Made by a program: the position numbers and the translations under genes. The notes below the pieces were generated by a model, which saw only the letters and a program-made list of their open reading frames with translations, was not told the origin of the DNA and ran no database searches. This document shows, piece by piece, positions 846-62,676 of a stretch of DNA of 64,000 bases. Within the stretch, counting starts at the first letter, position 1; each line of letters opens with the position of its first letter. The stretch is from an uncultured Acidobacteriota bacterium (lineage in GTDB: Bacteria; Acidobacteriota; Vicinamibacteria; Vicinamibacterales; 2-12-FULL-66-21). The stretch is from assembly GCA_963785755.1 (NCBI GenBank), contig CAWAXG010000075.1:676837-740836 (forward strand). The letters are read 5' to 3'.

Positions 846-870
846 CGAGGATGCTGAAAAACGTCGCCGC

Positions 871-966
871 GACAACTCCCAACTTCCAACCTCCAACTCC
901 CAAGGAGCTCAGAGCCGATCGACCAAGAGTTTTTTGGGAGTTGGAAGTTGGAGGTTGGAAGTTGAC
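871..966. repeat. Family A simple-word hairpin element, copy A1
   Basis: Left arm caactcccaacttccaacctccaactcccaa (873-903) and right arm ttgggagttggaagttggaggttggaagttg (934-964) are imperfect reverse complements around a ~30-nt loop. Ends in GTTGAC. Fills the SDR-FAH intergenic gap. Confidence 0.85.
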
Positions 967-1011
967 ACATTCATTTGCCTCTTCGCGAGCGCTCTCTCTC
1001 GAGGTGCGGAT

Positions 1012-10208: not shown

Positions 10209-10272
10209 TGAACTCCGAACCATTTGAACACCGAACTCTTGAAGCCATGAACCTTGAACACCTTGAACCGAC
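10209..10272. repeat. Family B simple-word element, copy B1 (right arm only)
   Basis: Tandem TGAAC words (tgaactcc gaaccatt tgaacacc gaactct tgaagcca tgaacct tgaacacct tgaaccgac). Ends with the family terminus TGAACCGAC directly abutting the stop codon of the next gene. Confidence 0.75.
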
Positions 10273-11637: not shown

Positions 11638-11650
11638 TGTGATGCTCCTT

Positions 11651-11743
11651 GGCAACTCCCAACCTCCAACTCTCAACGCCCAAAGGCGCCGTGCGCCTTG
11701 GTTCGGATGCCTTGGGGGTGGAAGTTGGAAGTTGGTGGTTGAC
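11651..11743. repeat. Family A simple-word hairpin element, copy A2
   Basis: caactcccaacctccaactctcaacgcccaa ... ttgggggtggaagttggaagttggtggttgac. Fills the gap between the dehydrogenase stop (11755) and the Gfo start (11637). Confidence 0.85.
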
Positions 11744-11754
11744 GATATCCGTTT

Positions 11755-20086: not shown

Positions 20087-22601
20087 ATGTTCCCTCGCAC
20101 TCGCCGTCTGCTCGTGGTCATCGGCGTTCTGATCGGTCAGCCCGCGCTGCACGCCTGGTCCCCGTCACTGATGGGTGACCGCGTCGAGTGGGCTGCGGCC
20201 GGCGCGGCCCAGAGCTGCTCCTACAGTCTGTCCGCCACCAGTGCCTCAGTGTCTTCGACCGGAACCACCGCCGGCTCGCTGTCGGTCGTCACCGGCACCA
20301 ACTGTTCCTGGACCTCGGTCAGCCACGACGCGTGGATCACGGTGACAGGTGGCGCGAGCGGAACGGGAATCGGTCAAGTCGCGTACAGCGTCGCCGCGAA
20401 CACGACCGGCGGCCAGCGCGTCGGCACCATGACGATCGCCGGCATGACCTACACGGTGACCCAGAGCGCGACCGGCTGCACGGTCAACCTCTCCGCGACC
20501 AGCGCCTCGGTCCCCTCGACCGGCAGCACCGCGGGCGCGTTGTCCGTCGTCACGGGCACGAGCTGTTCATGGACGGCGGTCAGCAACGCCGCCTGGATCA
20601 CCGTCACGAACGGCGCCAGCGGAACGGGAATCGGTCAGGTCGCGTACACCGTTGCGGCGAACACGACCGGCAGCCAGCGCGTCGGCACCATGACCATCGC
20701 CGGGCAGACCTTCACGGTCACCCAGAGCGGAAGCAGTTGCACGTACAGCCTCTCGGCGACGAGCGCCGCCGTGCCTTCGACCGGCAGCTCCGCCGGCGCG
20801 TTGTCCATCGTCAGCGGCACCAGCTGTTCATGGACGGCGGTCAGCAACGCCGCCTGGATCACCGTCACGAACGGCGCGAGCGGATCCGGAATCGGTCAGG
20901 TCGCGTACACCGTCGCCGCGAACACGACCGGCAGTCAGCGCGTCGGCACCATGACCATCGCCGGGCAGACCTTCACGGTCACCCAGAGCGGAGCCAGTTG
21001 CACCTACAGCCTCTCGGCGACGAGCGCCGCCGTGCCTTCGACCGGCAGCACCGCCGGCGCGTTGTCCATCGTCAGCGGCACCAGCTGTTCATGGACGGCG
21101 GTCAGCAACGCCGCCTGGATCACGGTCACAACGGCGCGAGCGGATCCGGAATCGGTCAGGTCGCGTACACCGTGGCCGCGAACACGACGGGCAGTCAGCG
21201 CGTCGGCACCATGACGATCGCCGGGCAGACCTACACGGTCACCCAGGCCGCCGCCAGTTGCACCTACAGCCTCTCGGCAACGAGCGCCTCCGTGCCTTCG
21301 ACCGGCAGCACCGCCGGCGCGTTGTCCATCGTCACGGGCACGAGCTGTTATGGACGGCCGTCAGCAACGCCGCCTGGATCACGGTCACCAACGGCGCGAG
21401 CGGATCCGGAATCGGTCAGGTCGCGTACACCGTGGCCGCGAACACGACGGGCAGTCAGCGCGTCGGCACCATGACGATCGCCGGGCAGACCTACACGGTC
21501 ACCCAGGCCGCCGCCAGTTGCACCTACAGCCTCTCGGCAACGAGCGCCTCCGTGCCTTCGACCGGCAGCACCGCGGGATCGTTGTCCGTCGTCACGGGCA
21601 CGAGCTGTTCATGGACCGCCGTCAGCAACGCCGCCTGGATCACGGTCACCAACGGCGCGAGCGGATCCGGAATCGGTCAGGTCTCGTACACCGTCGCGGC
21701 GAACACGACCAGCAGCCAGCGAGTCGGGACCATGGCGGTCGCCGGAATTGGGTTCACCGTGACCCAGGCCGCCGCCAGCTGTTCGTACAGCCTCTCCGCA
21801 ACCAGCGCCTCCGTCCCGTCGACCGGCAGCACGGCCGGAGCGGCATCCGTCGTCACGGGCACGAGCTGTTTCTGGAACGCCTTCAGCAGCGCTGCGTGGA
21901 TCACGGTGACGAGCGGCGCGAGCGGAACGGGAATCGGTCAGGTCGCGTACAGCGTTGCGGCGAATACGACCGGCGGTCAGCGCATCGGCACGATGACGAT
22001 CGCGGGGATCACGTTCACCGTTACGCAGGCCGCCGCCAGCTGCACCTACAGCCTCTCGGCAACGAGCGCCTCCGTGCCCTCGACCGGCAGCACCGCGGGC
22101 GCGTTGTCCGTGGTCACGGGCACGAGCTGTTCATGGACAGCCGTCAGCAACGCCGGCTGGATCACGGTCACCAACGGCGCGAGCGGATCCGGAATCGGTC
22201 AGGTCGCGTACACCGTAGCGGCGAATACGACGAGCAGTCAGCGGGTCGGCACCATGACGATCGCCGGGCAGACCTTCACAGTCACCCAGAGTGGAAGCAG
22301 TTGCACGTATAGCCTCTCGGCGACGAGCGCCTCGGTGCCGTCGACCGGCAGCACCGCGGGCGCGCTGTCCGTCGTCACCGGCACGAGCTGTTCGTGGACC
22401 GCGGTCAGCAACGCCGCCTGGATCACGGTCACCAACGGCGCGAGCGGATCCGGAATCGGTCAGGTCGCGTACACCGTAGCGGCGAATACGACGAGCAGTC
22501 AGCGGGTCGGCACCATGACGATCGCCGGGCAGACCTTCACAGTCACCCAGGCCGGCTCGACAACACTCAGCGCGCCGACGGGCCTTCGCGTCGTCAAGTG
22601 A
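20087..22601 (+). pseudogene. Secreted protein of nine tandem BACON-like domains; two 1-nt deletions as assembled
   Basis: ATG 20087 gives signal MFPRTRRLLVVIGVLIGQPALHA. The repeat unit is ~87 aa: SC(T/S)YSLSATSA.VPSTGS.AG.LS.V.GTSCSWTAVSNAAWITVTNGASG.GIGQVAYTVAANTT.SQRVGTMTIAGQTFTVTQ. The frame changes at 21129 (caccaacgg read as cacaacgg) and 21349 (ctgttcatgg read as ctgttatgg), splitting it into ORFs 20000..21214, 20188..21474 and 21258..22601. Confidence 0.75.
20213..22550 (+). repeat. 9 x ~261-bp tandem coding repeat
   Basis: The period is visible directly (e.g. 20741 vs 21001). Runs of about 180 nt are identical between units (21131-21314 vs 21391-21574). Confidence 0.9.
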
Positions 22602-22625
22602 CACTTGGAGAGAGTGCTGACGCAT

Positions 22626-22644
22626 TGGAGGTTGGAAGTTAACG
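22626..22644. repeat. Family A half-element, copy A3 (solo G-rich arm)
   Basis: ttggaggttggaagttaac sits in the 43-bp convergent gap. No complementary CCAAC arm nearby. Confidence 0.5.
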
Positions 22645-23530
22645 CTACGCCAAACCAAAAAGCTTCAGCGCGTTCTCTTTGAGAATCAGCGGCCGCACTT
22701 CGTCTTTGATCGCGATCTTCTCGAAGTCCGCCAGCCATCGATCCGGCGTGATCCACGGATAGTCCGAGCCGAACAGCACCTTGTGCCTGAGCAGTGAGTT
22801 GGCGTATTGCACGAGCGCCGGCGGAAAGTACTTGGGCGACCACCCGGACAGATCGATGTAGACGGTCGGCTTGTGCAGGCAGATCGAAATGGCTTCGTCC
22901 TGCCATGGGAACGACGGGTGCGCCATGATGATTGGCAGCTCGGGAAAATCGACAGCCACGTCATCGATGGGCATCGGGTTTCCGGTACTTGAGACGAATG
23001 CCGGCGCCGCCGGGTACACCGGTGCCGATCCCGCTGTGCCCGGTATGAAACAGAACCGGAAGCTTCGCCTCGGCGAACACCTCGTAGAGCGGGTAGGCGA
23101 TCGGGTCGTTCGGGAAGAACTGCTGGGCGGGCGGATGCAGTTTGAGGCCGTGGACGAGACCCGTCGCAATCAGCCGCTTCGCCTCCCGAACGGCCTCAGG
23201 GCCGCGTGTGGGATCGAGGCTGACGAACGCCAGGGCGATGTCCGCGTTGTCCGCGGCGAAGCGGAGAACCTCGTCGTTCGAGACCTGCCGGCGGCCGGAA
23301 AGCCGCTCGTCCACTGTGAACACTACAAACGCGATCCGGCGCGAACGGTAGTACTCCGCGAGGGCCGCCGGATTTCGCGGGGCGCCGCTGTCCCCGAAGG
23401 ACTTGCGCGCCGCGGCGTCGGCCACCGAGGCCTCCTCGACCTCGAGGTGCACGTGCACGTCGAATCCAGCCAGCTGCGTTTGATCAATCCCGGAACGTCG
23501 TTCCACGTGACTGTTGTCCTTCCCCGACAT
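22645..23530 (-). pseudogene. Amidohydrolase_2 family (ACMSD/LigW-type) metal-dependent hydrolase/decarboxylase; one frameshift as assembled
   Basis: The N-half (FDVHVHLE...VLFHTGHSG...GIRLKY) is in ORF 22961..23560 and the C-half (GNPMPIDDVAVDFPELPIIMAHP...LFGSDYPW) in ORF 22645..23169. The junction is at taccggaaaccc near 22980-22986. Start is ATG 23530 or GTG 23506, overlapping the upstream gene end. Confidence 0.7.
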
Positions 23531-25318: not shown

Positions 25319-25554
25319 CGTCGGTTCAAATGTTCAAGGGTTCAGGAGTTCAGAGGTTCGGGTTCAGGGATTCAACAGTTCGGGTTCAACAGTTCGAGCG
25401 TTCAAGGTTCAGCGATCTCGCCGCTGATCTCTCGAATCTTGGACATCTGAACCTGAACCCCTGAACCCCGAAGCCTTGAACCTGAACATCTGACCCCCCG
25501 AACCCTTGAACCCGAACCTCTGAACCCTTGAACTCTTGAACCATTGAACCGACG
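25319..25554. repeat. Family B simple-word palindrome, copy B2
   Basis: CGTCGGTTCA + ~12 GTTCR words (25319-25411), a 34-nt loop, ~13 TGAAC words, then TGAACCGACG (25446-25554). The outer ~45 nt of the arms are well complementary. Fills the gap between the FadB-like stop (25569) and the ligase start (25304). Confidence 0.9.
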
Positions 25555-25568
25555 AAAGCGGCGCGAGA

Positions 25569-32617: not shown

Positions 32618-32627
32618 ACGCGATCTT

Positions 32628-32797
32628 CGTCGGTTCAAAGGTTCAGGAGTTCAAGCGGTTCGGGTTCAGGGGTTCAGCGGTTCAAGGGTTCGACAGGGTT
32701 CAGAGGTTCAACCTCCCGCGCGAACTCTCGAACGACTGAACCTGAACCTCTGAACCCGAACCCGTGAACGCCTGAACTGCTGAACGCTTGAACCGAC
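32628..32797. repeat. Family B simple-word palindrome, copy B3
   Basis: CGTCGGTTCA + ~10 GTTCR words, loop cctcccgcgcgaactctcgaacgac, then TGAAC words ending TGAACCGAC. Fills the gap between the pcaF stop (32802) and the MetE-like start. Confidence 0.9.
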
Positions 32798-34013: not shown

Positions 34014-34030
34014 TGTCTCCTCATGGATCT

Positions 34031-34296
34031 CGTCGGTTCAGTAGTTCAAGGGTTCAAGGGTTCACGGGTTCGGGTTCAGAGGTTCAAAGGTTCGATTCAG
34101 CGTTCAAAGGTTCAAAGGTTCGATGCGGTTGCTCGAGCGACCGCGCGCCAGCGAGCGCGGCTGAGTTCCAGTTGAACATTTGAACCACGGACGCCGAACC
34201 TGAACTCTTGAACCTTGGAACTCTTGAACTCTTGAACCTTGAACCTTGAACCCTTGAACCCTTGAACCCTTGAACCCCTGAACCTTTGAACCGACG
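34031..34296. repeat. Family B simple-word palindrome, copy B4 (largest)
   Basis: CGTCGGTTCA + ~11 GTTCR words (to ~34125), a 45-nt GC loop with its own small stem (ccgcgc...gcgcgg), then ~14 TGAAC words ending TGAACCGACG. Occupies most of the divergent region between pcaF (start 34013) and the cytochrome c gene (start 34347). Confidence 0.9.
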
Positions 34297-34346
34297 ACAA
34301 TCCAGCATCGTACAACCGCCCCGATTGTCTGTATCATCGAGTTGAA

Positions 34347-35465
34347 ATGAGCATCAGGATTCCCCACCGAATATGGCGTGCGGGCTCGCTCGTCGGACTG
34401 GCTCTGGTCACTCTGGTCTGGGCGTCCGGATTGGCGCAGGAAACGGCGAAGCCGGCGCAGGTGTCGACAGAGGATGCCCGCGGTCAGGAGACCTTCCTGC
34501 GGGTCTGTTTGAAGTGCCACCCGGCGGAACGCGTGACCGCCGAGGGGCGATCGCGCTCGCAATGGGAAAACACGATGATCGCGATGCAGACTTCGCGCGG
34601 CGCCGTGATCACACCGGAAGAGTTCGACATCGTCTTGAACTACCTGACGAAGTTTCACGGACGGGATGGCGCGCCAGCTCCGGGCGGAGCTGCGCCGGCG
34701 GCGGCCGGGCGTGGGCCGCGCGCGAACGTCGGCGCGGCGGACCGGCATCGTGTGGAACCAGCCGCTGCCGCGCGCGGCCAGAAGATCTACGCCGCCGAGT
34801 GCGTCACGTGTCACGGTGCGAGCGCGCGCGGAACCGAGCGCGGGCCGAACCTGATCCGATCGACCAGGGTCCTGCGCGACCGCTACGGCAGCGCGATTGG
34901 CCCGCTGCTCAAGCAGGGCCACCCCATGCAGACCGCGACGTCGAGCGCCAGCCTGACGACGGAGCAGATCACCGATCTCTCCCACTTCATCTGGGATCGC
35001 ATCAATAACACGCTGCGAGGATCCCCGGAGTTCGACGTCAAGAACGTCCTGAGCGGGGACCCAAAGGCCGGCGAGGCCTATTTCACGGGCGAAGGCCGCT
35101 GCAGCACGTGTCACTCGTCGACCGGCGACCTCGCGGGCTACGGCAAGCGCTATCAGCCGGTCGACATCCAGCAGCGCTTCGTCTTCCCGTTTGCGCTCGG
35201 TGGGCGCGGCCGGGGCGCAGGCCGACAGCAGGTCGTCGTCACGGTGACGATTCCCGGCCGGCCGCCGGTCTCGGGCGTCCTCGTCAGCATGGACGACTTC
35301 CACGTCGCGCTGCGCGATTCGGCCGGCGACTACAGGTCGTGGGCCCGCACGGACGACATGAAGATCGCGAGAAAAGACCCGTTCGCCGCGCACGTGGAGC
35401 TGCTCGACCGCCTCACGGACAAGACCATGCACGACGTCGTCGCTTATCTGGAGTCGTTGAAATGA
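34347..35465 (+). CDS. Exported tri-haem c-type cytochrome
   Basis: 372 aa. Signal peptide ...LVTLVWASGLAQE. Three CxxCH motifs (CLKCH, CVTCH, CSTCH). Directly upstream of a PQQ dehydrogenase. Confidence 0.8.
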   Translation: MSIRIPHRIWRAGSLVGLALVTLVWASGLAQETAKPAQVSTEDARGQETFLRVCLKCHPAERVTAEGRSRSQWENTMIAMQTSRGAVITPEEFDIVLNYLTKFHGRDGAPAPGGAAPAAAGRGPRANVGAADRHRVEPAAAARGQKIYAAECVTCHGASARGTERGPNLIRSTRVLRDRYGSAIGPLLKQGHPMQTATSSASLTTEQITDLSHFIWDRINNTLRGSPEFDVKNVLSGDPKAGEAYFTGEGRCSTCHSSTGDLAGYGKRYQPVDIQQRFVFPFALGGRGRGAGRQQVVVTVTIPGRPPVSGVLVSMDDFHVALRDSAGDYRSWARTDDMKIARKDPFAAHVELLDRLTDKTMHDVVAYLESLK

Positions 35466-35485: not shown

Positions 35486-35605
35486 GTCCTCAACTCCCAA
35501 CTCTCCAACTTCGCCCCGCCTCCGCGCAGCGCGATCGGCATCGACGCGTCGCCGGAGCGCGGCGGAGAATCGGCGAGTTGGGAGTTATCGCAGACTCTTG
35601 TTGAC
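35486..35605. repeat. Family A simple-word hairpin element, copy A4
   Basis: Left arm gtcctcaactcccaactctccaacttcgcc, a ~55-nt GC loop, and a short right arm ggcgagttgggagtt. A GTTGAC word at 35600-35605 overlaps the TTG start codons of the next gene. Confidence 0.7.
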
Positions 35606-37178
35606 AGCCCTGGCCTTCGTCGCAGCCGCCTCCATGCTGGTGAGCGCCCAGGGCCGCATGGATCCCGCGAAGCTGCTGAAGCCGGCGACCGACAGCTGGC
35701 CGACGTTCAATGGTGATTACTCCGGCCGGCGCTTCAGCCCGCTGACGAAGATCACGAACGGCAACGTGCAGCAGCTGAGTCTCGCGTGGATGCACCGGAT
35801 CACCGGCACGGGGCTGGGCGCCATCAAGAGCACACCGCTGCAGATCAACGGCGTCCTCTACTTCACCGTACCCGATCACGTCTGGGCCGTCGACGCCCGC
35901 ACCGGCCGCGAGATCTGGCACTACCAGTGGCAGACGACCGGCGGCAACCATCTGGGCAACCGCGGCGTCGCGGTGCACGAGGACTGGCTCTATTTCGAGA
36001 CGCCCGACTGCTTCCTCATCTCGCTGAACCTCAAGGACGGCAAGGAACGCTGGCGCAAGCAGATCTGCGACATCGACCGCTTCTACTACGCGTCGGTCGC
36101 GCCGACGATCATCAAGGATCAGCTGATCGTGGGCGTCAGCGGCGACGACTTCGATATCCCGGGCTACATCCAGTCGCACAACGCGGAGAGCGGCGAGTTC
36201 CAGTGGCGGTTCTATACCGTTCCGCAGAAGGCGGGCGATCCCGGATCGGAGAGCTGGCCGAACGAGGAGATGGCCAGGCACGGCGGCGGCATGACGTGGC
36301 AGCCGATCACCTACGACCCCGAGCTCAACTACGTCTTCGTGACCACCGGCAACCCGCAGCCGGTGATCGCGCACAAGAACCGCCCCGGCGACAATCTGTT
36401 CACCGGCTCGATCGTCGCGGTGCGCGCCGACTCCGGCTCATTGGCGTGGGCGTTCCAATCCTCACCGCACGACACGCACGACTGGGACTCGACGCAGACG
36501 GCGGTCTTGATCGACGACGAAGCCGGCGGACAGAAGCGCAAGCTGATTGCCCAGGCCGCCCGGAACGGCCACTACTTCCTGCTCGATCGCACCAACGGCA
36601 AAGCGATCGTCTCCGCTGAGTACGTCAAGAGCAACTGGTGGAAAGGCTACGACGCCAAGGGTCAGCCGATTCCCGACCCCGCCAAGATGCCGCAGGTCGA
36701 CGGCGCACTCGTGTCGCCGAACCAGGGCGGCGCGACCAACTGGCAATCGCCCAGCTTCAGCCCGCTGACCGGCCTGTTCTACGTGAGCGCCGCGCGCGCC
36801 TACAGCATCTATTACATCTACGACCCGAGCGAGAACCCGATGGGATGGGGCGGATTCGATCGCGGCGGCTGGTCCGAGTCGATGCTCCAGGCGATCGACT
36901 ACAAGACCGGCAAGGTTCGCTGGACGCACAAATGGGAGGGCAACGCGGCGCGCAGCGGGATCGTCAGCACCGCCGGCAACGTGCTGTTCACCGGCGGTCC
37001 CTCCAACGACATCGTCGCGCTCGACGCCACGACCGGAAAGGCGCTCTGGCATGCCGGCATCAACGGCCCGATCACGAATGGCCCTATTACCTACGAGCTC
37101 GATGGACGGCAGTACGTGATCGCTGCGTCGGGAGATACTCTTTGGGCGTTCGTGCTCAACTCCACGCCGTCGAAGTGA
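35598..37178 (+). CDS. PQQ-dependent dehydrogenase (quinoprotein alcohol/sugar dehydrogenase beta-propeller)
   Basis: 526 aa. TTG start (35598 or 35601), with no ATG/GTG upstream in frame. Signal-like LTALAFVAAASMLVSAQG. N-terminus WPTFNGDYSGRRFSPL and repeated propeller W-motifs. N-terminus uncertain. Confidence 0.8.
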   Translation: MLTALAFVAAASMLVSAQGRMDPAKLLKPATDSWPTFNGDYSGRRFSPLTKITNGNVQQLSLAWMHRITGTGLGAIKSTPLQINGVLYFTVPDHVWAVDARTGREIWHYQWQTTGGNHLGNRGVAVHEDWLYFETPDCFLISLNLKDGKERWRKQICDIDRFYYASVAPTIIKDQLIVGVSGDDFDIPGYIQSHNAESGEFQWRFYTVPQKAGDPGSESWPNEEMARHGGGMTWQPITYDPELNYVFVTTGNPQPVIAHKNRPGDNLFTGSIVAVRADSGSLAWAFQSSPHDTHDWDSTQTAVLIDDEAGGQKRKLIAQAARNGHYFLLDRTNGKAIVSAEYVKSNWWKGYDAKGQPIPDPAKMPQVDGALVSPNQGGATNWQSPSFSPLTGLFYVSAARAYSIYYIYDPSENPMGWGGFDRGGWSESMLQAIDYKTGKVRWTHKWEGNAARSGIVSTAGNVLFTGGPSNDIVALDATTGKALWHAGINGPITNGPITYELDGRQYVIAASGDTLWAFVLNSTPSK

Positions 37179-37195
37179 TGACGATGACTGAAGAC

Positions 37196-37356
37196 GTCAA
37201 CTTCCAACTCCCAATCTCCAACTCCCAACTTCCAAAGCGAATGGCTCGTAGCATTGGGGTGAAAATCGCAGCGATCTACCCGATTGCACCGGCTTTCACC
37301 CAGGCGAGTTCCGGCGACTCGCTTTGGGAGTTGGAGATCGGGAGTTGGGAGTTGAC
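37196..37356. repeat. Family A simple-word hairpin element, copy A5
   Basis: gtcaacttccaactcccaatctccaactcccaacttccaaagcga (37196-37240), a 77-nt loop, then tcgctttgggagttggagatcgggagttgggagttgac (37318-37356). The arms differ by one hexamer unit. Ends 13 nt before ATG 37369. Confidence 0.9.
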
Positions 37357-37368
37357 GAGAGTGCACCT

Positions 37369-44693: not shown

Positions 44694-44895
44694 GCCACGT
44701 GCAACGTGCCACGGGCTACGTGCGCACGTGCTGTCGTGCCACGCTGCCACGTGCGCACGTGCATTTTGTGCGCACGTGCATTTTGTGCTCACGTGCTTAC
44801 GTGCTTGTGCTCACGTGCTTTGTGCCCGTCGCACGTAGCACGCAGGACGTAGCACGAAAAGCACGTGAGCACTCAGCGCGTGGCACGCGGCACGT
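44694..44895. repeat. Family C simple-word palindrome (ACGTGC / CACGTG words), copy C1
   Basis: About 15 GTGC-words at ~8-nt spacing (44694-44830), then an opposed GCAC-word arm (44831-44895) ending in TTTT on the plus strand. Fills the whole convergent gap 44694-44898. Confidence 0.85.
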
Positions 44896-59524: not shown

Positions 59525-60976
59525 TCAGAGGTTCAAATCGATCCAGACCGCCTTGACCTGCGTGTAGTGCTCGAGCGCGTGCGCGCTCATTTCGCGGCCG
59601 AACCCGCTCTGCTTGTATCCACCGAACGGTGCGGCGGTGTCGTAGACGTTGTAGGTATTCACCCACACCGTGCCGGCCTGCAGCTTCTTCGCCACGTAGT
59701 GCGCCTTCTTGATGTCGCGGGTCCAGACGCCGGCCGCGAGTCCGTACTGGCTCTCGTTCGCCTTCGCAATGGCCTCGTCCAGGTCCGCGAACTCGATCGC
59801 GGCCAGGACCGGCCCGAAGATCTCCTCGCGCGAAATCGTCATCTCGGACTTGACGTCGGCGAAGACGGTCGGCTGGACGAAATAACCCTTGCCGGTGCCG
59901 ATGTCGGCGCGTTGACCGCCGGCCATGAGCGTCGCCCCTTCGCGCTTCCCCGATTCGATGTAGCCGAGCACGGTGTCGAGCTGCTTCTTCGAAGAGATCG
60001 CGCCGAAGCGAGTCTTGGGATCCATCGGGTCGCCAGGCACCATCTTCTTCGCCCGGGCCGCGAGCTTGTCGAGAAACTCGTCCTTGATGGAACGGTCGAC
60101 CAGGAGCCTGGAGCCGGCGGCGCAGACCTCCCCCTTGCCGTAGAAGATGCCGATGGTGGCGCCGCGGACCGCGGCCTCCATGTCGGCGTCCGGCAGCACG
60201 ATGTTGGGGGATTTTCCGCCGAGCTCCAGCGTGATCTTCTTGAGCGTGTCGGCGGCGCTCCTCATGATCGACTTCCCGGTGCCGGTATCGCCGGTGAAGG
60301 CGACCTTGTCGATCCCCGGATGCTCCACAATCGCCTGGCCGACCGTCGATCCCGGACCGGTGATGACGTTCAGCACGCCCGGGGGCAGTCCCACTTCCAC
60401 GGCGATCTCGCCGAGTGCCAGGGCCGTGAGCGGAGTCTGGCTCGCGGGCTTGAGGATCACCGTGTTGCCGCAGGCCAGGGCGGGCGCCACTTTCCAGGCC
60501 GCGAGCAGCAGCGGGAAGTTCCACGGCACGATGGCGGCAACGACCCCGACCGGCTCGCGCAGCGTGTAGGTGAGATGGTTACCCTTGACCGGGATCGTCT
60601 CACCCATCAACTTGTCCGACCAGCCGCCGTAATACTCGAAGCACTCGGCCGCCGCCGGGATCTCGATCTGCCGTGACTCCGTGATCGGCTTGCCGTTGTG
60701 CAGGGTTTCGAGCCGCGCGACATGGTCCGCCCGCTCCATCAACCGGTCGCCGAGCTTCCGCACCAGGCGCCCGCGCTCGCGCGCGGACATCGCGCTCCAC
60801 GGCCCGGCCAGCGCCGCTCGCGCCGCCGCCACCGCGGCATCGACATCGGACGCGTTCGCCGCCGCGACCTCGGCAATCACCTCTTCGGTCGCGGGATTCA
60901 CCACCGGCATCGTCTGTCCGGACGACGAGCCGCGCCATTCGTTGTTGATGAAGAGAGCTCCAGCCTGCGACGTCAA
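59525..60976 (-). CDS. NAD(P)-dependent aldehyde dehydrogenase (BoxD-like by position)
   Basis: About 483 aa from TTG 60976 (MTSQAGALFINNEW...). The ORF opens at 61006 inside element A6. Catalytic motifs LELGGKSP and GEVCAAGSRLLV. Confidence 0.8.
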   Translation of the reverse strand: MTSQAGALFINNEWRGSSSGQTMPVVNPATEEVIAEVAAANASDVDAAVAAARAALAGPWSAMSARERGRLVRKLGDRLMERADHVARLETLHNGKPITESRQIEIPAAAECFEYYGGWSDKLMGETIPVKGNHLTYTLREPVGVVAAIVPWNFPLLLAAWKVAPALACGNTVILKPASQTPLTALALGEIAVEVGLPPGVLNVITGPGSTVGQAIVEHPGIDKVAFTGDTGTGKSIMRSAADTLKKITLELGGKSPNIVLPDADMEAAVRGATIGIFYGKGEVCAAGSRLLVDRSIKDEFLDKLAARAKKMVPGDPMDPKTRFGAISSKKQLDTVLGYIESGKREGATLMAGGQRADIGTGKGYFVQPTVFADVKSEMTISREEIFGPVLAAIEFADLDEAIAKANESQYGLAAGVWTRDIKKAHYVAKKLQAGTVWVNTYNVYDTAAPFGGYKQSGFGREMSAHALEHYTQVKAVWIDLNL

Positions 60977-61127
60977 CTCGCTCAGCTCCCAACTCCCGAC
61001 TCCCAAGAAGCATCAGTCGAACGAGCTGGGTGGAATACGTGACAACGAGCTCTCCGAGTACGACTTTCACCCGGCGCTGTCGAACCTCGCGCGTTGGCAG
61101 TTGGGAGTTGGGAGTGTGGGAGTTGAC
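60972..61127. repeat. Family A simple-word hairpin element, copy A6
   Basis: gtcaactcgctcagctcccaactcccgactcccaa (60972-61006), an ~87-nt loop, then ttggcagttgggagttgggagtgtgggagttgac (61094-61127). Fills the boxB-ALDH gap. The terminal GTCAAC contains the probable TTG start on the minus strand. Confidence 0.85.
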
Positions 61128-61136
61128 GTCATGTCG

Positions 61137-62555
61137 TCAGGCCTCGGTCCTGACATACTCGAAGTCGAGCGGCAGCCGGTTGATGCCCCGCAAAGGCGGC
61201 GCGATGTAGTTTGCGAACTTCCCGGGCTCGTACACCGGCTCCGCCATGATGCTGAGGAGGTAGTCGCGGTCCGCCGCCGAAGGCAGCCATTCGTGCTTCC
61301 GCCGTTCCCAGTCCTCATCGGAGATCGGCGCCCCGTTGGGGTCGAAGTGCAGCGCCGAGAACATGCCGATCCCGCGGTTGAACTTGCGATCGGGCAATCG
61401 TACCCGTTCGGACATGCCGTGGCGTTCGAAGATCTTGTTCCACCGCTCGATGCCCGCCTGGCAGTCGCCGACGTACCAGTCGCGCAGCACCTCGTTCATC
61501 GCGGTGCGCATCGGGATCGCGCGGCGCGTGAGCGTGCCTTCGGCGGCAACCTCGAGCTCGTAGAACTTGTCGACGACCACGTGATCGTCCCACTTCTCTT
61601 CCTGCGCCCGGCCCTTCAGGCCGTTGGCGAAGTACGACGCGGCGTTGGTCGAGATCTCGTTGCCGTGCAGATCGAGCGACAGGCTGAACCACAGGTTGAT
61701 GAACTTCTGGATCGTCGGCAGGTCGATCCCGCCAAGCCGGCGCACGTCCTCCGAGAACCCGGCCTGCTTCATCAGCTGGCAGGTGCGCTCGATGATGCGC
61801 GCGACGCCGGTTTCACCGACGAACATGTGGTGCGCTTCCTCGGTGAGCATGAACCGCGTCGTCCGCGACAGCGGATCCAATGAACTCTCGGACAGCGACA
61901 ACAGCTGCGACTTGCCATCGCGATCGGTGAACATGGTGAACATGAAGAAGTCGAGCCAGTTGTCGATCGGCTCGTTGAACGCGTCGAGGATGCGCGGCTT
62001 GTCCCGGTTGCCGCTCTGCCGCGCCAGCAGCTCCTCGGCCTCGTCGCGGCCGTCGCGGCCGAAGTAGGAGTGCAGCAGGTAGACCATCGCCCAGAGGTGC
62101 CTTCCCTCCTCGACATTCACCTGGAACAGATTGCGCAGATCGTACAGGCTCGGGCAGCGCTGGCCGAGCCATCGCTGCTGCTCGACGCTCGCGGGCTCGG
62201 TGTCCCCCTGCGTCACGATCAGGCGCCGGAGCTGATTACGGAATTCCCCGGGCACCTCGTGCCACACCGGCTGGCCGGCGAAATCGCCGAACCCGATGCG
62301 CCGGTCGTGGACTGGATCGGCCAGAAAGATGCCCCACCGGTATTCGGGCAGCTTCACGTACTCGAAGTGCGCCCACCCCGAGGGATCGACGCTCACCGCG
62401 GTGCGGACGTAGACCTGGTGATAGTCCTGGAACCCCTGCGGTCCCATGTCGCGCCACCACTGGATATACGCGGGCTGCCAGTGCTCGAGCGCCCGCTGCA
62501 GCCGCTTGTTGCTCGACAGACCGACGTTGTTGGGAATCTTTTCGGCGGAAATCAT
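61137..62555 (-). CDS. boxB: Benzoyl-CoA 2,3-epoxidase (oxygenase) component B
   Basis: 472 aa. N-terminus MISAEKIPNNVGLSSNKRLQRALEHWQPAYIQWW is typical of BoxB. Di-iron ExxH motifs NVEEGRHLW and LTEEAHHMF. Confidence 0.85.
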   Translation of the reverse strand: MISAEKIPNNVGLSSNKRLQRALEHWQPAYIQWWRDMGPQGFQDYHQVYVRTAVSVDPSGWAHFEYVKLPEYRWGIFLADPVHDRRIGFGDFAGQPVWHEVPGEFRNQLRRLIVTQGDTEPASVEQQRWLGQRCPSLYDLRNLFQVNVEEGRHLWAMVYLLHSYFGRDGRDEAEELLARQSGNRDKPRILDAFNEPIDNWLDFFMFTMFTDRDGKSQLLSLSESSLDPLSRTTRFMLTEEAHHMFVGETGVARIIERTCQLMKQAGFSEDVRRLGGIDLPTIQKFINLWFSLSLDLHGNEISTNAASYFANGLKGRAQEEKWDDHVVVDKFYELEVAAEGTLTRRAIPMRTAMNEVLRDWYVGDCQAGIERWNKIFERHGMSERVRLPDRKFNRGIGMFSALHFDPNGAPISDEDWERRKHEWLPSAADRDYLLSIMAEPVYEPGKFANYIAPPLRGINRLPLDFEYVRTEA

Positions 62556-62556
62556 T

Positions 62557-62676
62557 CACGTGCTCCGTGCTACGTGCTGGGTGCGAACGTGCCTCGTGCT
62601 ACATGCACACGTGCGGACGTGCCGATCGTGCTACGGGCTACGTGCGGACGTGCTTTTGTGCTACGTGCTTCGTGCC
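62557..62676. repeat. Family C simple-word array, copy C2 (single orientation)
   Basis: About 13 GTGC words at ~8-nt spacing (cacgtgct ccgtgct acgtgctgg gtgcga acgtgcct cgtgct ...), directly abutting the boxB start codon. Followed by an 8-bp stem cttccggc/gccggaag (62693-62712). Confidence 0.8.

Follow-up and report, generated by a model that had tools for sequence, protein, structure and literature searches.

Is a palindromic repeat that carries a start codon in its end a device for controlling translation, or has a gene taken its start site from a repeat that is there for other reasons? This question is raised by a spacer in the 64,000-nucleotide stretch of DNA from an uncultured Vicinamibacterales bacterium that we analyzed (hereafter the window). 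The spacer lies upstream of an aldehyde dehydrogenase (ALDH) gene and is filled by A6, a member of a repeat family that we refer to as family A. The first-pass annotation had proposed that the G-rich arm of such elements resembles stacked Shine-Dalgarno (SD) sites, that the hairpin would sequester them, and that the elements control, or have captured, initiation of the downstream cistron.

The probable ALDH start codon within A6

The features at this junction, all on the minus strand, are the following.

59525..60976, minus strand: ALDH coding sequence (PF00171), 483 aa counted from the TTG
60969..61130, minus strand: A6, a long form of 162 nt, an imperfect palindrome filling the spacer between the boxB-like and ALDH genes, of the form GTCAA-(CTCCCAA)n…(TTGGGAG)n-TTGAC
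60969..61006, minus strand: A6 3' arm, G-rich and SD-like, mRNA sense TTGGGAG-TCGGGAG-TTGGGAG-CTGAGCGAG-TTGAC-GTC
60974..60976, minus strand: TTG, likeliest ALDH start codon, inside the terminal GTTGAC (60977-60972)
60986..60990, minus strand: GGGAG, an SD-like word exactly 9 nt upstream of the TTG
61067..61132, minus strand: small ORF of 21 codons, whose ATG is 4 nt past the upstream stop, crossing the whole 5' arm and ending at GGG-TGA in the loop
61094..61130, minus strand: A6 5' arm, C-rich and anti-SD-like, mRNA sense GAC-GTCAA-CTCCCAC-ACTCCCAA-CTCCCAA-CTGCCAA
61127-61118, minus strand: mate terminus of A6, sequence read GTCAACTCCC
61137..62555, minus strand: upstream cistron, 472 aa, no Pfam hit on record, with its TGA (61139-61137) 6-9 nt before A6

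We take the upstream cistron to be boxB-like. It had been suggested that TTG 60974-60976 is the only plausible ALDH start and that GGGAG lies 9 nt before it. The spacing was confirmed on minus-strand coordinates, and the claim of a unique start needs a qualification. No in-frame ATG or GTG occurs in the interval from the stop at 61013-61015 to the conserved FINNEW motif, where the only canonical starts are TTG 61006 and TTG 60976. The former is likewise inside the A6 arm and in frame, and ALDH could start there instead.

Comparative and gene-calling evidence, on which our assignment is based, supports initiation on TTG 60976. A JGI gene call on a 99%-identical contig begins at this codon and yields a protein of 483 aa; ALDH orthologues are 480-496 aa long, and among the 120 listed, at least 10 have a literal "LT" at their N-terminus, which corresponds to TTG-ACN. 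In orthologues that lack the element, a gap of 1-16 nt separates the stop from the start. Seven related loci have the element at the same junction of boxB stop and ALDH start, with ALDH starting on the terminal TTGAC (they include L001, L197, L198/199, L200 and L018). The N-terminal tails at element-bearing loci vary in length and residues while the frame is kept. The expected N-terminal peptide would be (M)TSQAGALFINNEWR for the terminal TTG, MGVGSWELSELTSQ… for TTG 61006 and MPVVNPATEE… for the Met in QTMPVVNP. Two more loci were considered as independent cases of a terminal TTG start and rejected: the L110 frame breaks twice relative to its orthologues L192 and L159, probably because of long-read indel errors, and the real start of L087 is probably an ATG at +70.

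The probable ALDH start codon and the sole SD-like word at working distance both lie within the terminal inverted repeat of A6, and the seven loci support the part of the original proposal according to which initiation has been "captured" at this junction.

The SD-like and anti-SD-like character ascribed to the two arms is borne out by calculation. Family A units pair with a generic anti-SD at -7.0 to -10.8 kcal/mol (the anti-SD sequence was assumed, and there is no 16S gene within the window), compared with -6.5 and -9.0 kcal/mol for two genuine SDs nearby. The 21 nt before the A6 TTG give a duplex of -10.8 kcal/mol. In a perfect 3' arm, GGGAG occurs 7 nt upstream of every TTG, the terminal one included; the distance from GGGAG to the start is 9 nt in A6 and 13-16 nt in another copy, A4, where it is borderline given an expected distance of about 5-10 nt.

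The idea that the hairpin sequesters this sequence fares differently from copy to copy. The predicted fold of the A6 mRNA has an energy of -91.8 kcal/mol (z = -5.1), and its stem contains the SD word as well as the TTG. Opening the A6 start region (-18..+12) has a predicted cost of 37.9 kcal/mol, versus a median of 12.8 kcal/mol for 17 crudely called starts. At such a cost, the SD would not be accessible to a 30S subunit unless ribosomes from upstream opened it. If a ribosome occupies the upstream stop, the predicted cost is lower, at 28 kcal/mol for the region as a whole and 8 kcal/mol around the start codon. The corresponding costs are 22.3 kcal/mol for A4 and an ordinary 14.2, 11.2 and 11.7 kcal/mol for A5, A2 and A1, so that sequestration is supported, as a prediction, for A6 only.

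Family A in the window and in other genomes

Family A, a palindromic repeat scattered through genomes of Vicinamibacteria (Acidobacteriota), is built from two inverted heptamer arrays, (CTCCCAA)n and (TTGGGAG)n, which have a period of 7 nt (TTGGGAG) and are closed by GTCAAC/GTTGAC. The window holds five copies, each located between co-directional genes. Those other than A6 are as follows.

870..967, plus strand: A1, a short form whose loop measures 16 nt; ATG 1012, downstream, comes with a GAGGTG of its own
11650..11744, minus strand: A2, a short form; ATG 11637, downstream, comes with an AAGGAG of its own
35486..35605, plus strand: A4, degenerate, between a cytochrome c gene stop (35463-35465) and a PQQ dehydrogenase gene
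37195..37357, plus strand: A5, a long form lying between the stop of the PQQ dehydrogenase (37176-37178) and ATG 37369 of the following gene

Short forms measure 54-113 nt and long forms 124-183 nt, and each arm has 3-5 TTGGGAG/CTCCCAA units, in all five copies of the window as well as in those obtained from other genomes. An alignment of A6, A5, L203, L197 and L198 reveals an inner core common to these long forms, GGGTGAAAGTCG…TTTCACCCAG. The fold z-scores of A5 and A4 are -8.5 and -2.9, respectively. With at most one mismatch, GGGAGTTGAC occurs 11 times in the window where 3.6 occurrences are expected, and none of 100 shuffles reached 11. The terminal inverted repeats GTCAACTCCC…GGGAGTTGAC are 96% paired across orthologues, as is looked for in a MITE. 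Copies everywhere end in TTGAC, including those that face gene 3' ends, and this terminus pairs with the GTCAA opposite. Since the element is a palindrome, a C-rich arm that comes first and a G-rich arm beside the downstream gene are automatic on either strand, and this order carries no independent information.

A genome scan with GGGAGTTGGGAGTTGAC returned at least 115 matches, and for 65 matches a partner arm could be identified. The hosts among the 80 matches listed are mostly Vicinamibacterales, Vicinamibacteria or Acidobacteriota MAGs. Similar arrays also turned up in Planctomycetota and Bacteroidota.

A5 and A2, which had been described as ending 13 nt before the start codon, end about 12 nt before it (ATGs 37369 and 11637). 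For A4, it had been claimed that the PQQ dehydrogenase has no in-frame ATG or GTG and starts on tandem TTG codons overlapping a GTTGAC. The first point is incorrect, as ATG 35634 and GTG 35640 are in frame, but both are located inside the signal peptide. The gene call made for the source contig starts at ATG 35634. The candidate starts are TTG 35598, TTG 35601 and ATG 35634; exact-protein look-ups found neither TTG-initiated version, from 35598 or from 35601, on record. Moreover, the A4 GTTGAC (35600-35605) is 2 nt off the heptamer register and separated from the paired arm by 19 nt. Elsewhere, ATGs located 2-13 nt past the terminus have the last GGGAG as their sole SD-like word; those of L099, L159, L192, L173, L196, L098 and L092 are 2-5 nt after GTTGAC.

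Possible roles of the repeat and of its start site

We think that family A is, rather probably, a palindromic repeat of the region after stop codons, and that ALDH adopted the terminal TTG and GGGAG of A6 as a by-product. Under this explanation, the family would lodge in transcribed spacers a few nucleotides past stop codons, like REP, ERIC and cyanobacterial STRR repeats, and its likeness to a start site would belong to the repeat sequence itself and not be the reason for the repeat's existence. At A6 the repeat may have landed in a tight stop-start junction, where ALDH would have come to use the terminal TTG as its start and the repeat's GGGAG as its SD, an arrangement then presumably inherited across several species. 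As the paired arms are predicted to bury the A6 start region in the mRNA, ALDH synthesis probably depends on ribosomes from the upstream cistron. These ribosomes would either finish the upstream gene 6-9 nt short of the stem or read the short ORF through the 5' arm.

It might seem natural to read the same hairpin as a dedicated device, in which stacked SD sites and a start codon are locked until a signal or upstream translation opens them. The SD-like arm (-7 to -10.8 kcal/mol) and the predicted burial at A6 are what such a device would show, and its arms co-vary: pairing extends to 96% of cells in six orthologous A6-type copies (from only about 3 independent lineages), with compensatory changes at 8 of the 33 pairs, a result that 0 of 500 shuffles reached. 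In tandem contexts, moreover, the perfectly conserved terminus is on the stop side in 25 cases and on the start side in 7, suggesting a different pressure on the start-side arm. However, the positional tie of the family is to stop codons: termini lie a median of 6 nt past the stop codon, and 58 of 79 distances are within -5 to +14 nt. The 49 copies with classifiable gene contexts comprise 32 tandem, 14 convergent and 3 divergent ones, and the convergent copies have no downstream start. None of 26 start-facing copies from other genomes requires its terminal TTG as a start, and in the window the A1, A2 and A5 starts have ordinary opening costs, with A1 and A2 having SDs of their own. Two sister families, B and C, share the architecture and placement and come equally near start codons, yet they have no SD complementarity (-1.0 and +0.5 kcal/mol, respectively, against the anti-SD). 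Nor was there the sense-strand excess of G·U in tandem contexts that would be a sign of RNA-level selection (28 G·U versus 32 A·C), so the palindrome may be kept at the DNA level and not as an RNA hairpin. An ungapped analysis of 65 copies (59% paired versus 57% in shuffles) speaks neither for nor against pairing, as varying unit lengths make the register drift past about 19 nt. Overall, we regard control as the family's purpose as quite improbable. A possibility that we take more seriously, while holding it short of probable, is that family A acts at transcript ends, as a terminator or pause site lacking a U-tract or as a barrier to 3' exonucleases that shapes mRNA stability and polarity, with the overlap with starts being incidental. 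The short distance past stop codons, the preponderance of convergent over divergent contexts and the very stable stems all agree with this, and such a role is established for REP/BIME and proposed for STRR hairpins (PMC2670836; PMC3733652). On the other hand, no terminator-like or promoter pattern was found on either strand in 60800-61300. The GC-rich hairpin of A6 has no U-tract after it, and an intrinsic terminator at A6 was rejected; with no promoter found around A6, a role of GTTGAC as an outward -35 box is without support there. In addition, the 32 tandem copies lie between co-directional genes that are likely operon partners; complete termination there would leave the second gene unexpressed. 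An effect on transcript ends is compatible with adoption of the start site as a by-product and could be the primary effect of the family.

Two further alternatives concern how the ALDH start itself arose or is reached. One resembles the MIRU case: a short ORF would run from a 5'-terminal (A/G)TG through the element to the TGA of GTTGAC, with a TTGA overlap, so that ribosomes melt the hairpin and restart downstream. L001, L197 and L198/199 indeed have an ORF of 51-53 codons from just past the upstream stop to the terminal TGA, and this frame is open in 29 of 34 long strand-copies versus 22 and 15 for the other two frames. In L203, P0133 and P0143 the same frame is fused to PQQ dehydrogenase, in L203 because its terminus reads GTTGTC. 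Against this, the ORF is broken in the A6 of the window, where a stop in the loop follows 21 codons, and it is absent from L200 and L018. The lengths modulo 3 of 17 long copies are distributed 6/7/4, which argues that an in-frame TGA ending is not selected, and the open frame may be mere inheritance from a master copy. We consider a conserved relay of this kind very doubtful. The other alternative is that the TTG predates the element, i.e., that a TTG start of ALDH was in place before the repeat inserted directly against it, the GTTGAC overlap being a target site or a coincidence. In a close relative without the element (L201/202), ALDH starts on a TTG with its own AGGAG. The ancestral start may therefore already have been TTG, and the first-pass statement that the element "supplied" the codon is not provable; in L198, too, another TTG follows the terminal one at a distance of two codons. 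However, TTGAC belongs to family A copies wherever they are, L201 has TTGAGC and not TTGAC, and other element-free orthologues start on GTG or ATG. On balance we think it unlikely that the TTG came first. A last idea, also unlikely in our estimation, is that the repeat is a self-contained "coupling cassette" that, being palindromic, loops out of the mRNA and keeps the upstream stop and downstream TTG side by side, so that ribosomes would restart on the repeat's own TTG and SD. The stop would then be 6-9 nt before the stem and the TTG in its last 5 nt, and the restarting ribosomes would be either those that terminate or those on an element-spanning ORF ending in TTGA. If this were true, the family could colonize tight operon junctions without polar damage, and its tolerance so near stop and start codons across Vicinamibacteria would be explained.

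Comparison with known repeats and implications

Rfam covariance models at gathering thresholds gave no match in the whole window, and a literature search with the repeat strings found no relevant paper. The closest likeness is to the STRR hairpins of cyanobacteria, e.g., between hupS and hupL, which were proposed to stabilize transcripts or confer translational coupling (PMC2670836). Family A shares with them tandem 7-nt units, an intergenic and often intercistronic location and the potential to form hairpins; moreover, several unrelated heptamer families coexist per genome in both settings. It differs in having defined GTCAAC/GTTGAC termini and a conserved inner core in long forms, and behaves as a discrete dispersed element. 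STRR1-3 are from heterocystous or filamentous cyanobacteria, and the host here belongs to Vicinamibacterales and the units have other sequences. The STRR units are CCCCAGT, TTGGTCA and CAACAGT. We know of no STRR that donates a start codon.

Like REP/BIME and REPIN elements, family A is palindromic, extragenic and found just past stop codons in transcribed regions; REP/BIME occur in tens to hundreds of copies per genome and influence the stability or polarity of mRNA. A REP, however, is a single imperfect palindrome that measures 20-40 nt and has a GTAG or CGTC head left unpaired, and CGTC REPs have stems of 8-9 bp and loops of 4-5 nt (PMC3733652). Some family A termini read CGTCAAC…GTTGACG, with CGTC paired with GACG in the stem, and the arms are heptamer arrays in elements of 54-183 nt; we therefore rejected membership among REPs or REPINs on the basis of stem and loop size.

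ERIC/IRU, Correia (NEMIS) and BOX elements are also repeats of about 100-150 nt with inverted termini that are co-transcribed and form long RNA hairpins altering the expression of flanking genes, but they do not have arms made of short tandem repeats. A TA target is duplicated by Correia elements, which also have promoter boxes; the flanks of the window copies and further listed copies, judged by eye, have no visible common direct repeat of the kind that a target-site duplication would leave, and no promoter pattern was seen around A6. MIRU, attributed to Supply et al. (1997), reportedly lie between operon cistrons and contain small ORFs whose start and stop overlap the flanking genes, which preserves translational coupling. 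The ORFs of L001, L197 and L198 that end in TTGA are similar, but MIRU are direct tandem repeats of 46-101 bp, unlike the palindromes of family A, in which a spanning ORF is not conserved.

The predicted location of the A6 start in a stem whose other strand is in or next to the upstream reading frame resembles MS2 coat/replicase and IS10 fold-back inhibition. Those are bespoke local hairpins, however, and the A6 stem would come from a mobile repeat and be far more stable (about -90 kcal/mol). Coupling in which upstream ribosomes unfold a stem that locks a downstream start is described by the operon model of Tian and Salis (PMC4538824). Start codons for expressed ORFs can come from pneumococcal BOX modules (PMC3049150).

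A practical consequence is that gene starts beside such repeats are called inconsistently in these very abundant, mostly uncultured soil bacteria. One repeat has led to three outcomes, i.e., it was read through as a 575-aa protein, the protein was cut to a version without a signal peptide, or a TTG start was called. N-termini and signal-peptide predictions near these repeats therefore need care. The ALDH junction would be a clear case in which a gene acquired its initiation codon and ribosome-binding word from a repeat, selfish or structural, with subsequent inheritance across species. Post-stop-codon spacers of Acidobacteriota hold many repeat families, only one of which is SD-like. It appears that STRR-like hairpin repeats of short period also occur outside cyanobacteria, so the long-standing question of the function of STRR-type repeats may be approached in more lineages.

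Family A copies and the pairing of their arms

The genome of the window (Vicinamibacterales, Acidobacteriota) has a G+C content of 65.9%. The window's proteins are also encoded by a JGI soil contig and a 1.3-Mb ENA contig, and their closest named homologues come from Vicinamibacterales MAGs. Family A, a dispersed palindromic repeat, has a heptamer as its unit. Its copy A6 lies between a boxB-like 472-aa gene and an aldehyde dehydrogenase (ALDH) gene; the A6 rows below were read from the sequence, with arms in mRNA sense.

Features of A6 and other family A copies in the window
61139-61137, minus: stop codon TGA of the 472-aa gene upstream of A6
6-9 nt, minus: spacer from this TGA to A6
5' arm, minus: GAC-GTCAA-CTCCCAC-ACTCCCAA-CTCCCAA-CTGCCAA
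87 nt, minus: middle part between the arms
3' arm, minus: TTGGGAG-TCGGGAG-TTGGGAG-CTGAGCGAG-TTGAC-GTC, then the ALDH body
870-967, 11650-11744, ~35486-35605, 37195-37357: four further family A copies

With at most one mismatch, GGGAGTTGAC occurs 11 times in the window, against 3.6 expected. An inner core, GGGTGAAAGTCG…TTTCACCCAG…TTCG, is shared by A6, A5 and the A4 orthologue in locus L203 of another genome, the three long copies, and by copies at orthologous loci; family A therefore represents copies of one dispersed element, not locally grown arrays. A scan of the window with Rfam gave no match to the element.

Six orthologous copies from the ALDH junction, representing only about three lineages, were aligned and scored on the 33-pair arm helix. 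In this alignment 96% of cells are paired and 8 of the 33 pairs have two-sided changes; none of 500 shuffles matched these values, and slid controls fell to 26-52% paired. Sense-strand G·U pairs are not in excess in 32 tandem contexts from other genomes (28 G·U vs 32 A·C mismatches). The alignment indicates that the palindrome is conserved, which may be at the RNA or the DNA level.

Candidate start codons at A6 and A4

The first-pass annotation had placed the ALDH start at the TTG within the terminal GTTGAC of A6, and this assignment is well supported by a gene call, by element-bearing orthologues and by the window sequence, which has no ATG or GTG in the ALDH frame upstream of the conserved LFINNEW…NPATEE block. 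There, the frame has just two canonical starts, TTG 61006 and TTG 60976. In L001, a 99% identical JGI contig, ALDH is called from the equivalent of TTG 60976 (483 aa). The best 120 homologues are 480-496 aa long, and their N-termini lie 5-19 residues before the INNEW block (8-11 in 106 of the 120). For at least 10 of these 120 the recorded protein literally begins with leucine-threonine, which corresponds to TTG-ACN (e.g., LTKDSKRLF, LTLTSDQIRALELF, LTSRTDQ… and LTEITEIARQLF).

Among the orthologous loci compared, L001, L197 and L198/199 have a family A element at exactly the boxB-like/ALDH junction, and L200 and L018 have a diverged one (units CAAATCCC/CAAGCTCC and GGAGCTTG/GGGATTTG). In every one of these loci the element begins 6-10 nt past the upstream stop and terminates in (G/T)TTGAC, the TTG of which is the ALDH start. 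The stretch after TTG-AC varies between loci in sequence and residue number, with the frame always kept, and is therefore translated. In element-free orthologues the two genes are 1-16 nt apart. Such orthologues start at GTG, at ATG or, in L201/202, at a TTG with its own AGGAG; the ancestral start may already have been TTG before the element arrived. On this sequence evidence, it is very likely that the ALDH start codon belongs to the 3' arm of the repeat, with the terminal TTG as the most probable one.

The analogous claim for A4, the copy before the PQQ dehydrogenase, is less secure. Among the canonical starts in frame, TTG 35598 and TTG 35601 alone retain the signal peptide, but ATG 35634 and GTG 35640, further downstream, are also in frame, although the annotation had seen no such codon. 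The gene caller of the source contig used ATG 35634, with loss of the signal peptide, and an exact-protein look-up found no recorded PQQ dehydrogenase beginning at either TTG. The signal peptide from these TTGs has no positive charge; in orthologues, which start with MKR or MRR, the LLKP motif follows after 15-75 residues (median 33). In L203, a full family A copy separates the cytochrome c stop, which forms an ATGA overlap, from the PQQ dehydrogenase, and the gene call runs from the ATG of this ATGA through the whole element into the dehydrogenase (575 aa). The overlap lies at 35462-35465 in the window and at 601-604 in L203, and its ATG is in the dehydrogenase frame in L203 and out of frame in the window. 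A4 has either a TTG start in its G-rich arm, or an element that forms an N-terminal extension in some strains, or an indel error.

Shine-Dalgarno likeness, predicted burial and upstream translation

The G-rich arm does resemble Shine-Dalgarno (SD) sequence, as had been proposed. Against a generic 16S tail, which was assumed (the window has no rRNA gene), family A units have duplex energies of -7.0 to -10.8 kcal/mol, compared with -9.0 and -6.5 kcal/mol for genuine SDs in the A2 flank and in L201, -1.0 kcal/mol for repeat family B and +0.5 kcal/mol for family C. GGGAG stands 7 nt upstream of each TTG of a perfect arm, and 9 nt upstream in A6.

The companion claim, that the hairpin buries this sequence, applies less widely. 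The predicted A6 mRNA fold (-91.8 kcal/mol, z = -5.1) holds the SD word and the TTG in its stem. The computed cost of opening -18..+12 around the start is 37.9 kcal/mol for A6, 22.3 for A4, 14.2 for A5 (the copy after the PQQ dehydrogenase), 11.2 for A2 and 11.7 for A1, against a median of 12.8 (range 8.9-31) for 17 other, crudely defined starts. In this model, sequestration of the start is a real prediction for A6, a marginal one for A4, and absent for A1, A2 and A5. A ribosome placed on the upstream stop lowers the computed A6 cost to 28 kcal/mol over the whole region and to 8 within the start codon region. Unfolding of intergenic structure by ribosomes is a well-established way of coupling cistrons.

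Translation of an ORF spanning the element is a minor rival, or a contributing mechanism, at the A6 junction. In its favour, L001 (1496-1651), L197 and L198/199 have a 51-53 codon ORF that starts at an (A/G)TG formed at the element's 5' terminus, spans the whole element and stops at the TGA within GTTGAC, where its stop codon and the ALDH TTG overlap in TTGA. However, it is absent in L200 and L018, and element length modulo 3 gives no sign of selection for it. In A6, an ATG at 61132-61130, 4 nt past the upstream stop, begins an ORF of 21 codons, which extends across the entire 5' arm and terminates within the loop; its translation would free the 3' arm. The product of the spanning ORF, which also occurs in L203 (601-770), is (M)(T)STPN.QLPTPK…LGSWELGVGS. 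Of 34 long strand-copies, 29 have the frame of this ORF open, and gene callers join it to the PQQ dehydrogenase in two 575-aa proteins (P0133, P0143). MIRU elements likewise have a small ORF between cistrons, with overlaps of stop and start codons.

Placement across genomes and sister repeats

Scanning species-representative genomes with GGGAGTTGGGAGTTGAC matched at least 115 stretches, and most of the 80 matches listed are from Vicinamibacterales, Vicinamibacteria or Acidobacteriota MAGs. Among the stretches matched, the perfect terminus faces the 3' end of a gene in 64 cases and the start of one in 26, with 21 unclear; the 65 copies with a recognisable partner arm are 54-183 nt long, in contexts that include 32 tandem, 14 convergent and 3 divergent. 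The distance from the preceding stop codon to the terminus has a median of 6 nt (-5 to +14 in 58/79), and the positions of downstream starts vary more widely (+2 to +62 nt). In none of these 26 start-facing copies is the terminal TTG needed as a start; one candidate, L087, has a better ATG at +70. In about ten genes next to matched copies, the ATG lies 2-13 nt past the terminus and the last GGGAG is the sole SD-like word. In the tandem contexts among these copies, the perfectly conserved terminus is stop-side in 25 and start-side in 7 (p ~0.002 by our own binomial estimate, with contexts crudely inferred), which hints that start-side arms were reshaped.

L110, L192 and L159 keep a family A copy ending GTTGACAGATG before the same gene, whose N-terminus has the motif IAIVGFGLIGGS. 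L110, from a long-read MAG, was rejected as a terminal-TTG start: its gene has two frame breaks, probably assembly indels, which call for caution in inferring start codons from long-read assemblies, the window's source contig included.

Exact matches to GGGAGTTGGGAGTTGAC also occur in Planctomycetota, Bacteroidota and Lentisphaeria MAGs (L088, L094, L114, L140, L142, L150), within other heptamer arrays with a common xxxGTTG core (units such as AGTTGAC, AGTTGGT and GAGTTGA…). These recall cyanobacterial STRR3, whose unit is CAACAGT, and may reflect a cross-phylum phenomenon or mis-binning.

Many other families with a 7-8-nt period occupy the same kind of spacer in the window and orthologous loci. 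Family B forms long palindromes with 8-nt-repeat arms, (GGTTCAAG)n/(CTTGAACC)n, closed by CGTCGG…CCGACG, and ends 10-14 nt before ATGs that lack any SD. The arms of family C are built of heptamers, (CGTGCTA)n/(TAGCACG)n.

Copies of families B and C
10231-10272, 25319-25555, 32627-32797, 34030-34297 (window): family B
44705-44743, 62588-62665 (window) and 2340-2445 (L203): family C

The 268-nt family B copy at 34030-34297 takes up most of a spacer between divergent genes, whose two promoters must therefore be inside or next to this copy. In L203, the junction that corresponds to A5 has family C in place of family A; related genomes therefore have different repeat families at the same operon junction. 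At least six further short-period families occur at the junction upstream of ALDH orthologues (L008, L011, L012, L021, L028, L032, L035, L055), with units CACGAAGG, GATTGCG, CAATCGC, CTGGAAA, CACGGGTT and GTGAAAA. Some are direct arrays with no inverted partner, which in L012 and L028 continue straight into the ATG. Elsewhere in the window, a 261-nt unit (87 codons) is repeated nine to ten times in tandem at 20204-22653, with 62-100% identity between copies, and is presumably a repeated domain within a large gene.

Because the sister families lie as near to starts, this closeness characterises the class as a whole, in a genome that is compact. Family A is the sole SD-like family among those compared, and mainly because its non-SD-like sisters share the closeness, we read its SD-likeness as incidental, though exploitable.

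The closest known match to family A is cyanobacterial STRR, 7-bp tandem repeats with hairpins in intercistronic spacers, for example that of hupS and hupL, for which a role in stabilisation or translational coupling was proposed (PMC2670836). REP/BIME and CGTC-REPs are likewise palindromes that follow stop codons, but their architecture is different (PMC3733652), and BOX elements are able to supply start codons (PMC3049150). Our literature search found no description of such repeats in Acidobacteria.

The first-pass annotation was largely right in its observation. Its broader suggestion, that the elements control or have captured initiation, fits the junctions where SD and start appear co-opted, but the sister families and the tie to stop codons argue against family-wide control of translation. 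The narrower reading is of a post-stop-codon palindromic repeat whose terminal words seem, at some junctions, to have been taken over as SD and start codon. At A6, the modelled fold predicts that ALDH would depend on upstream translation.
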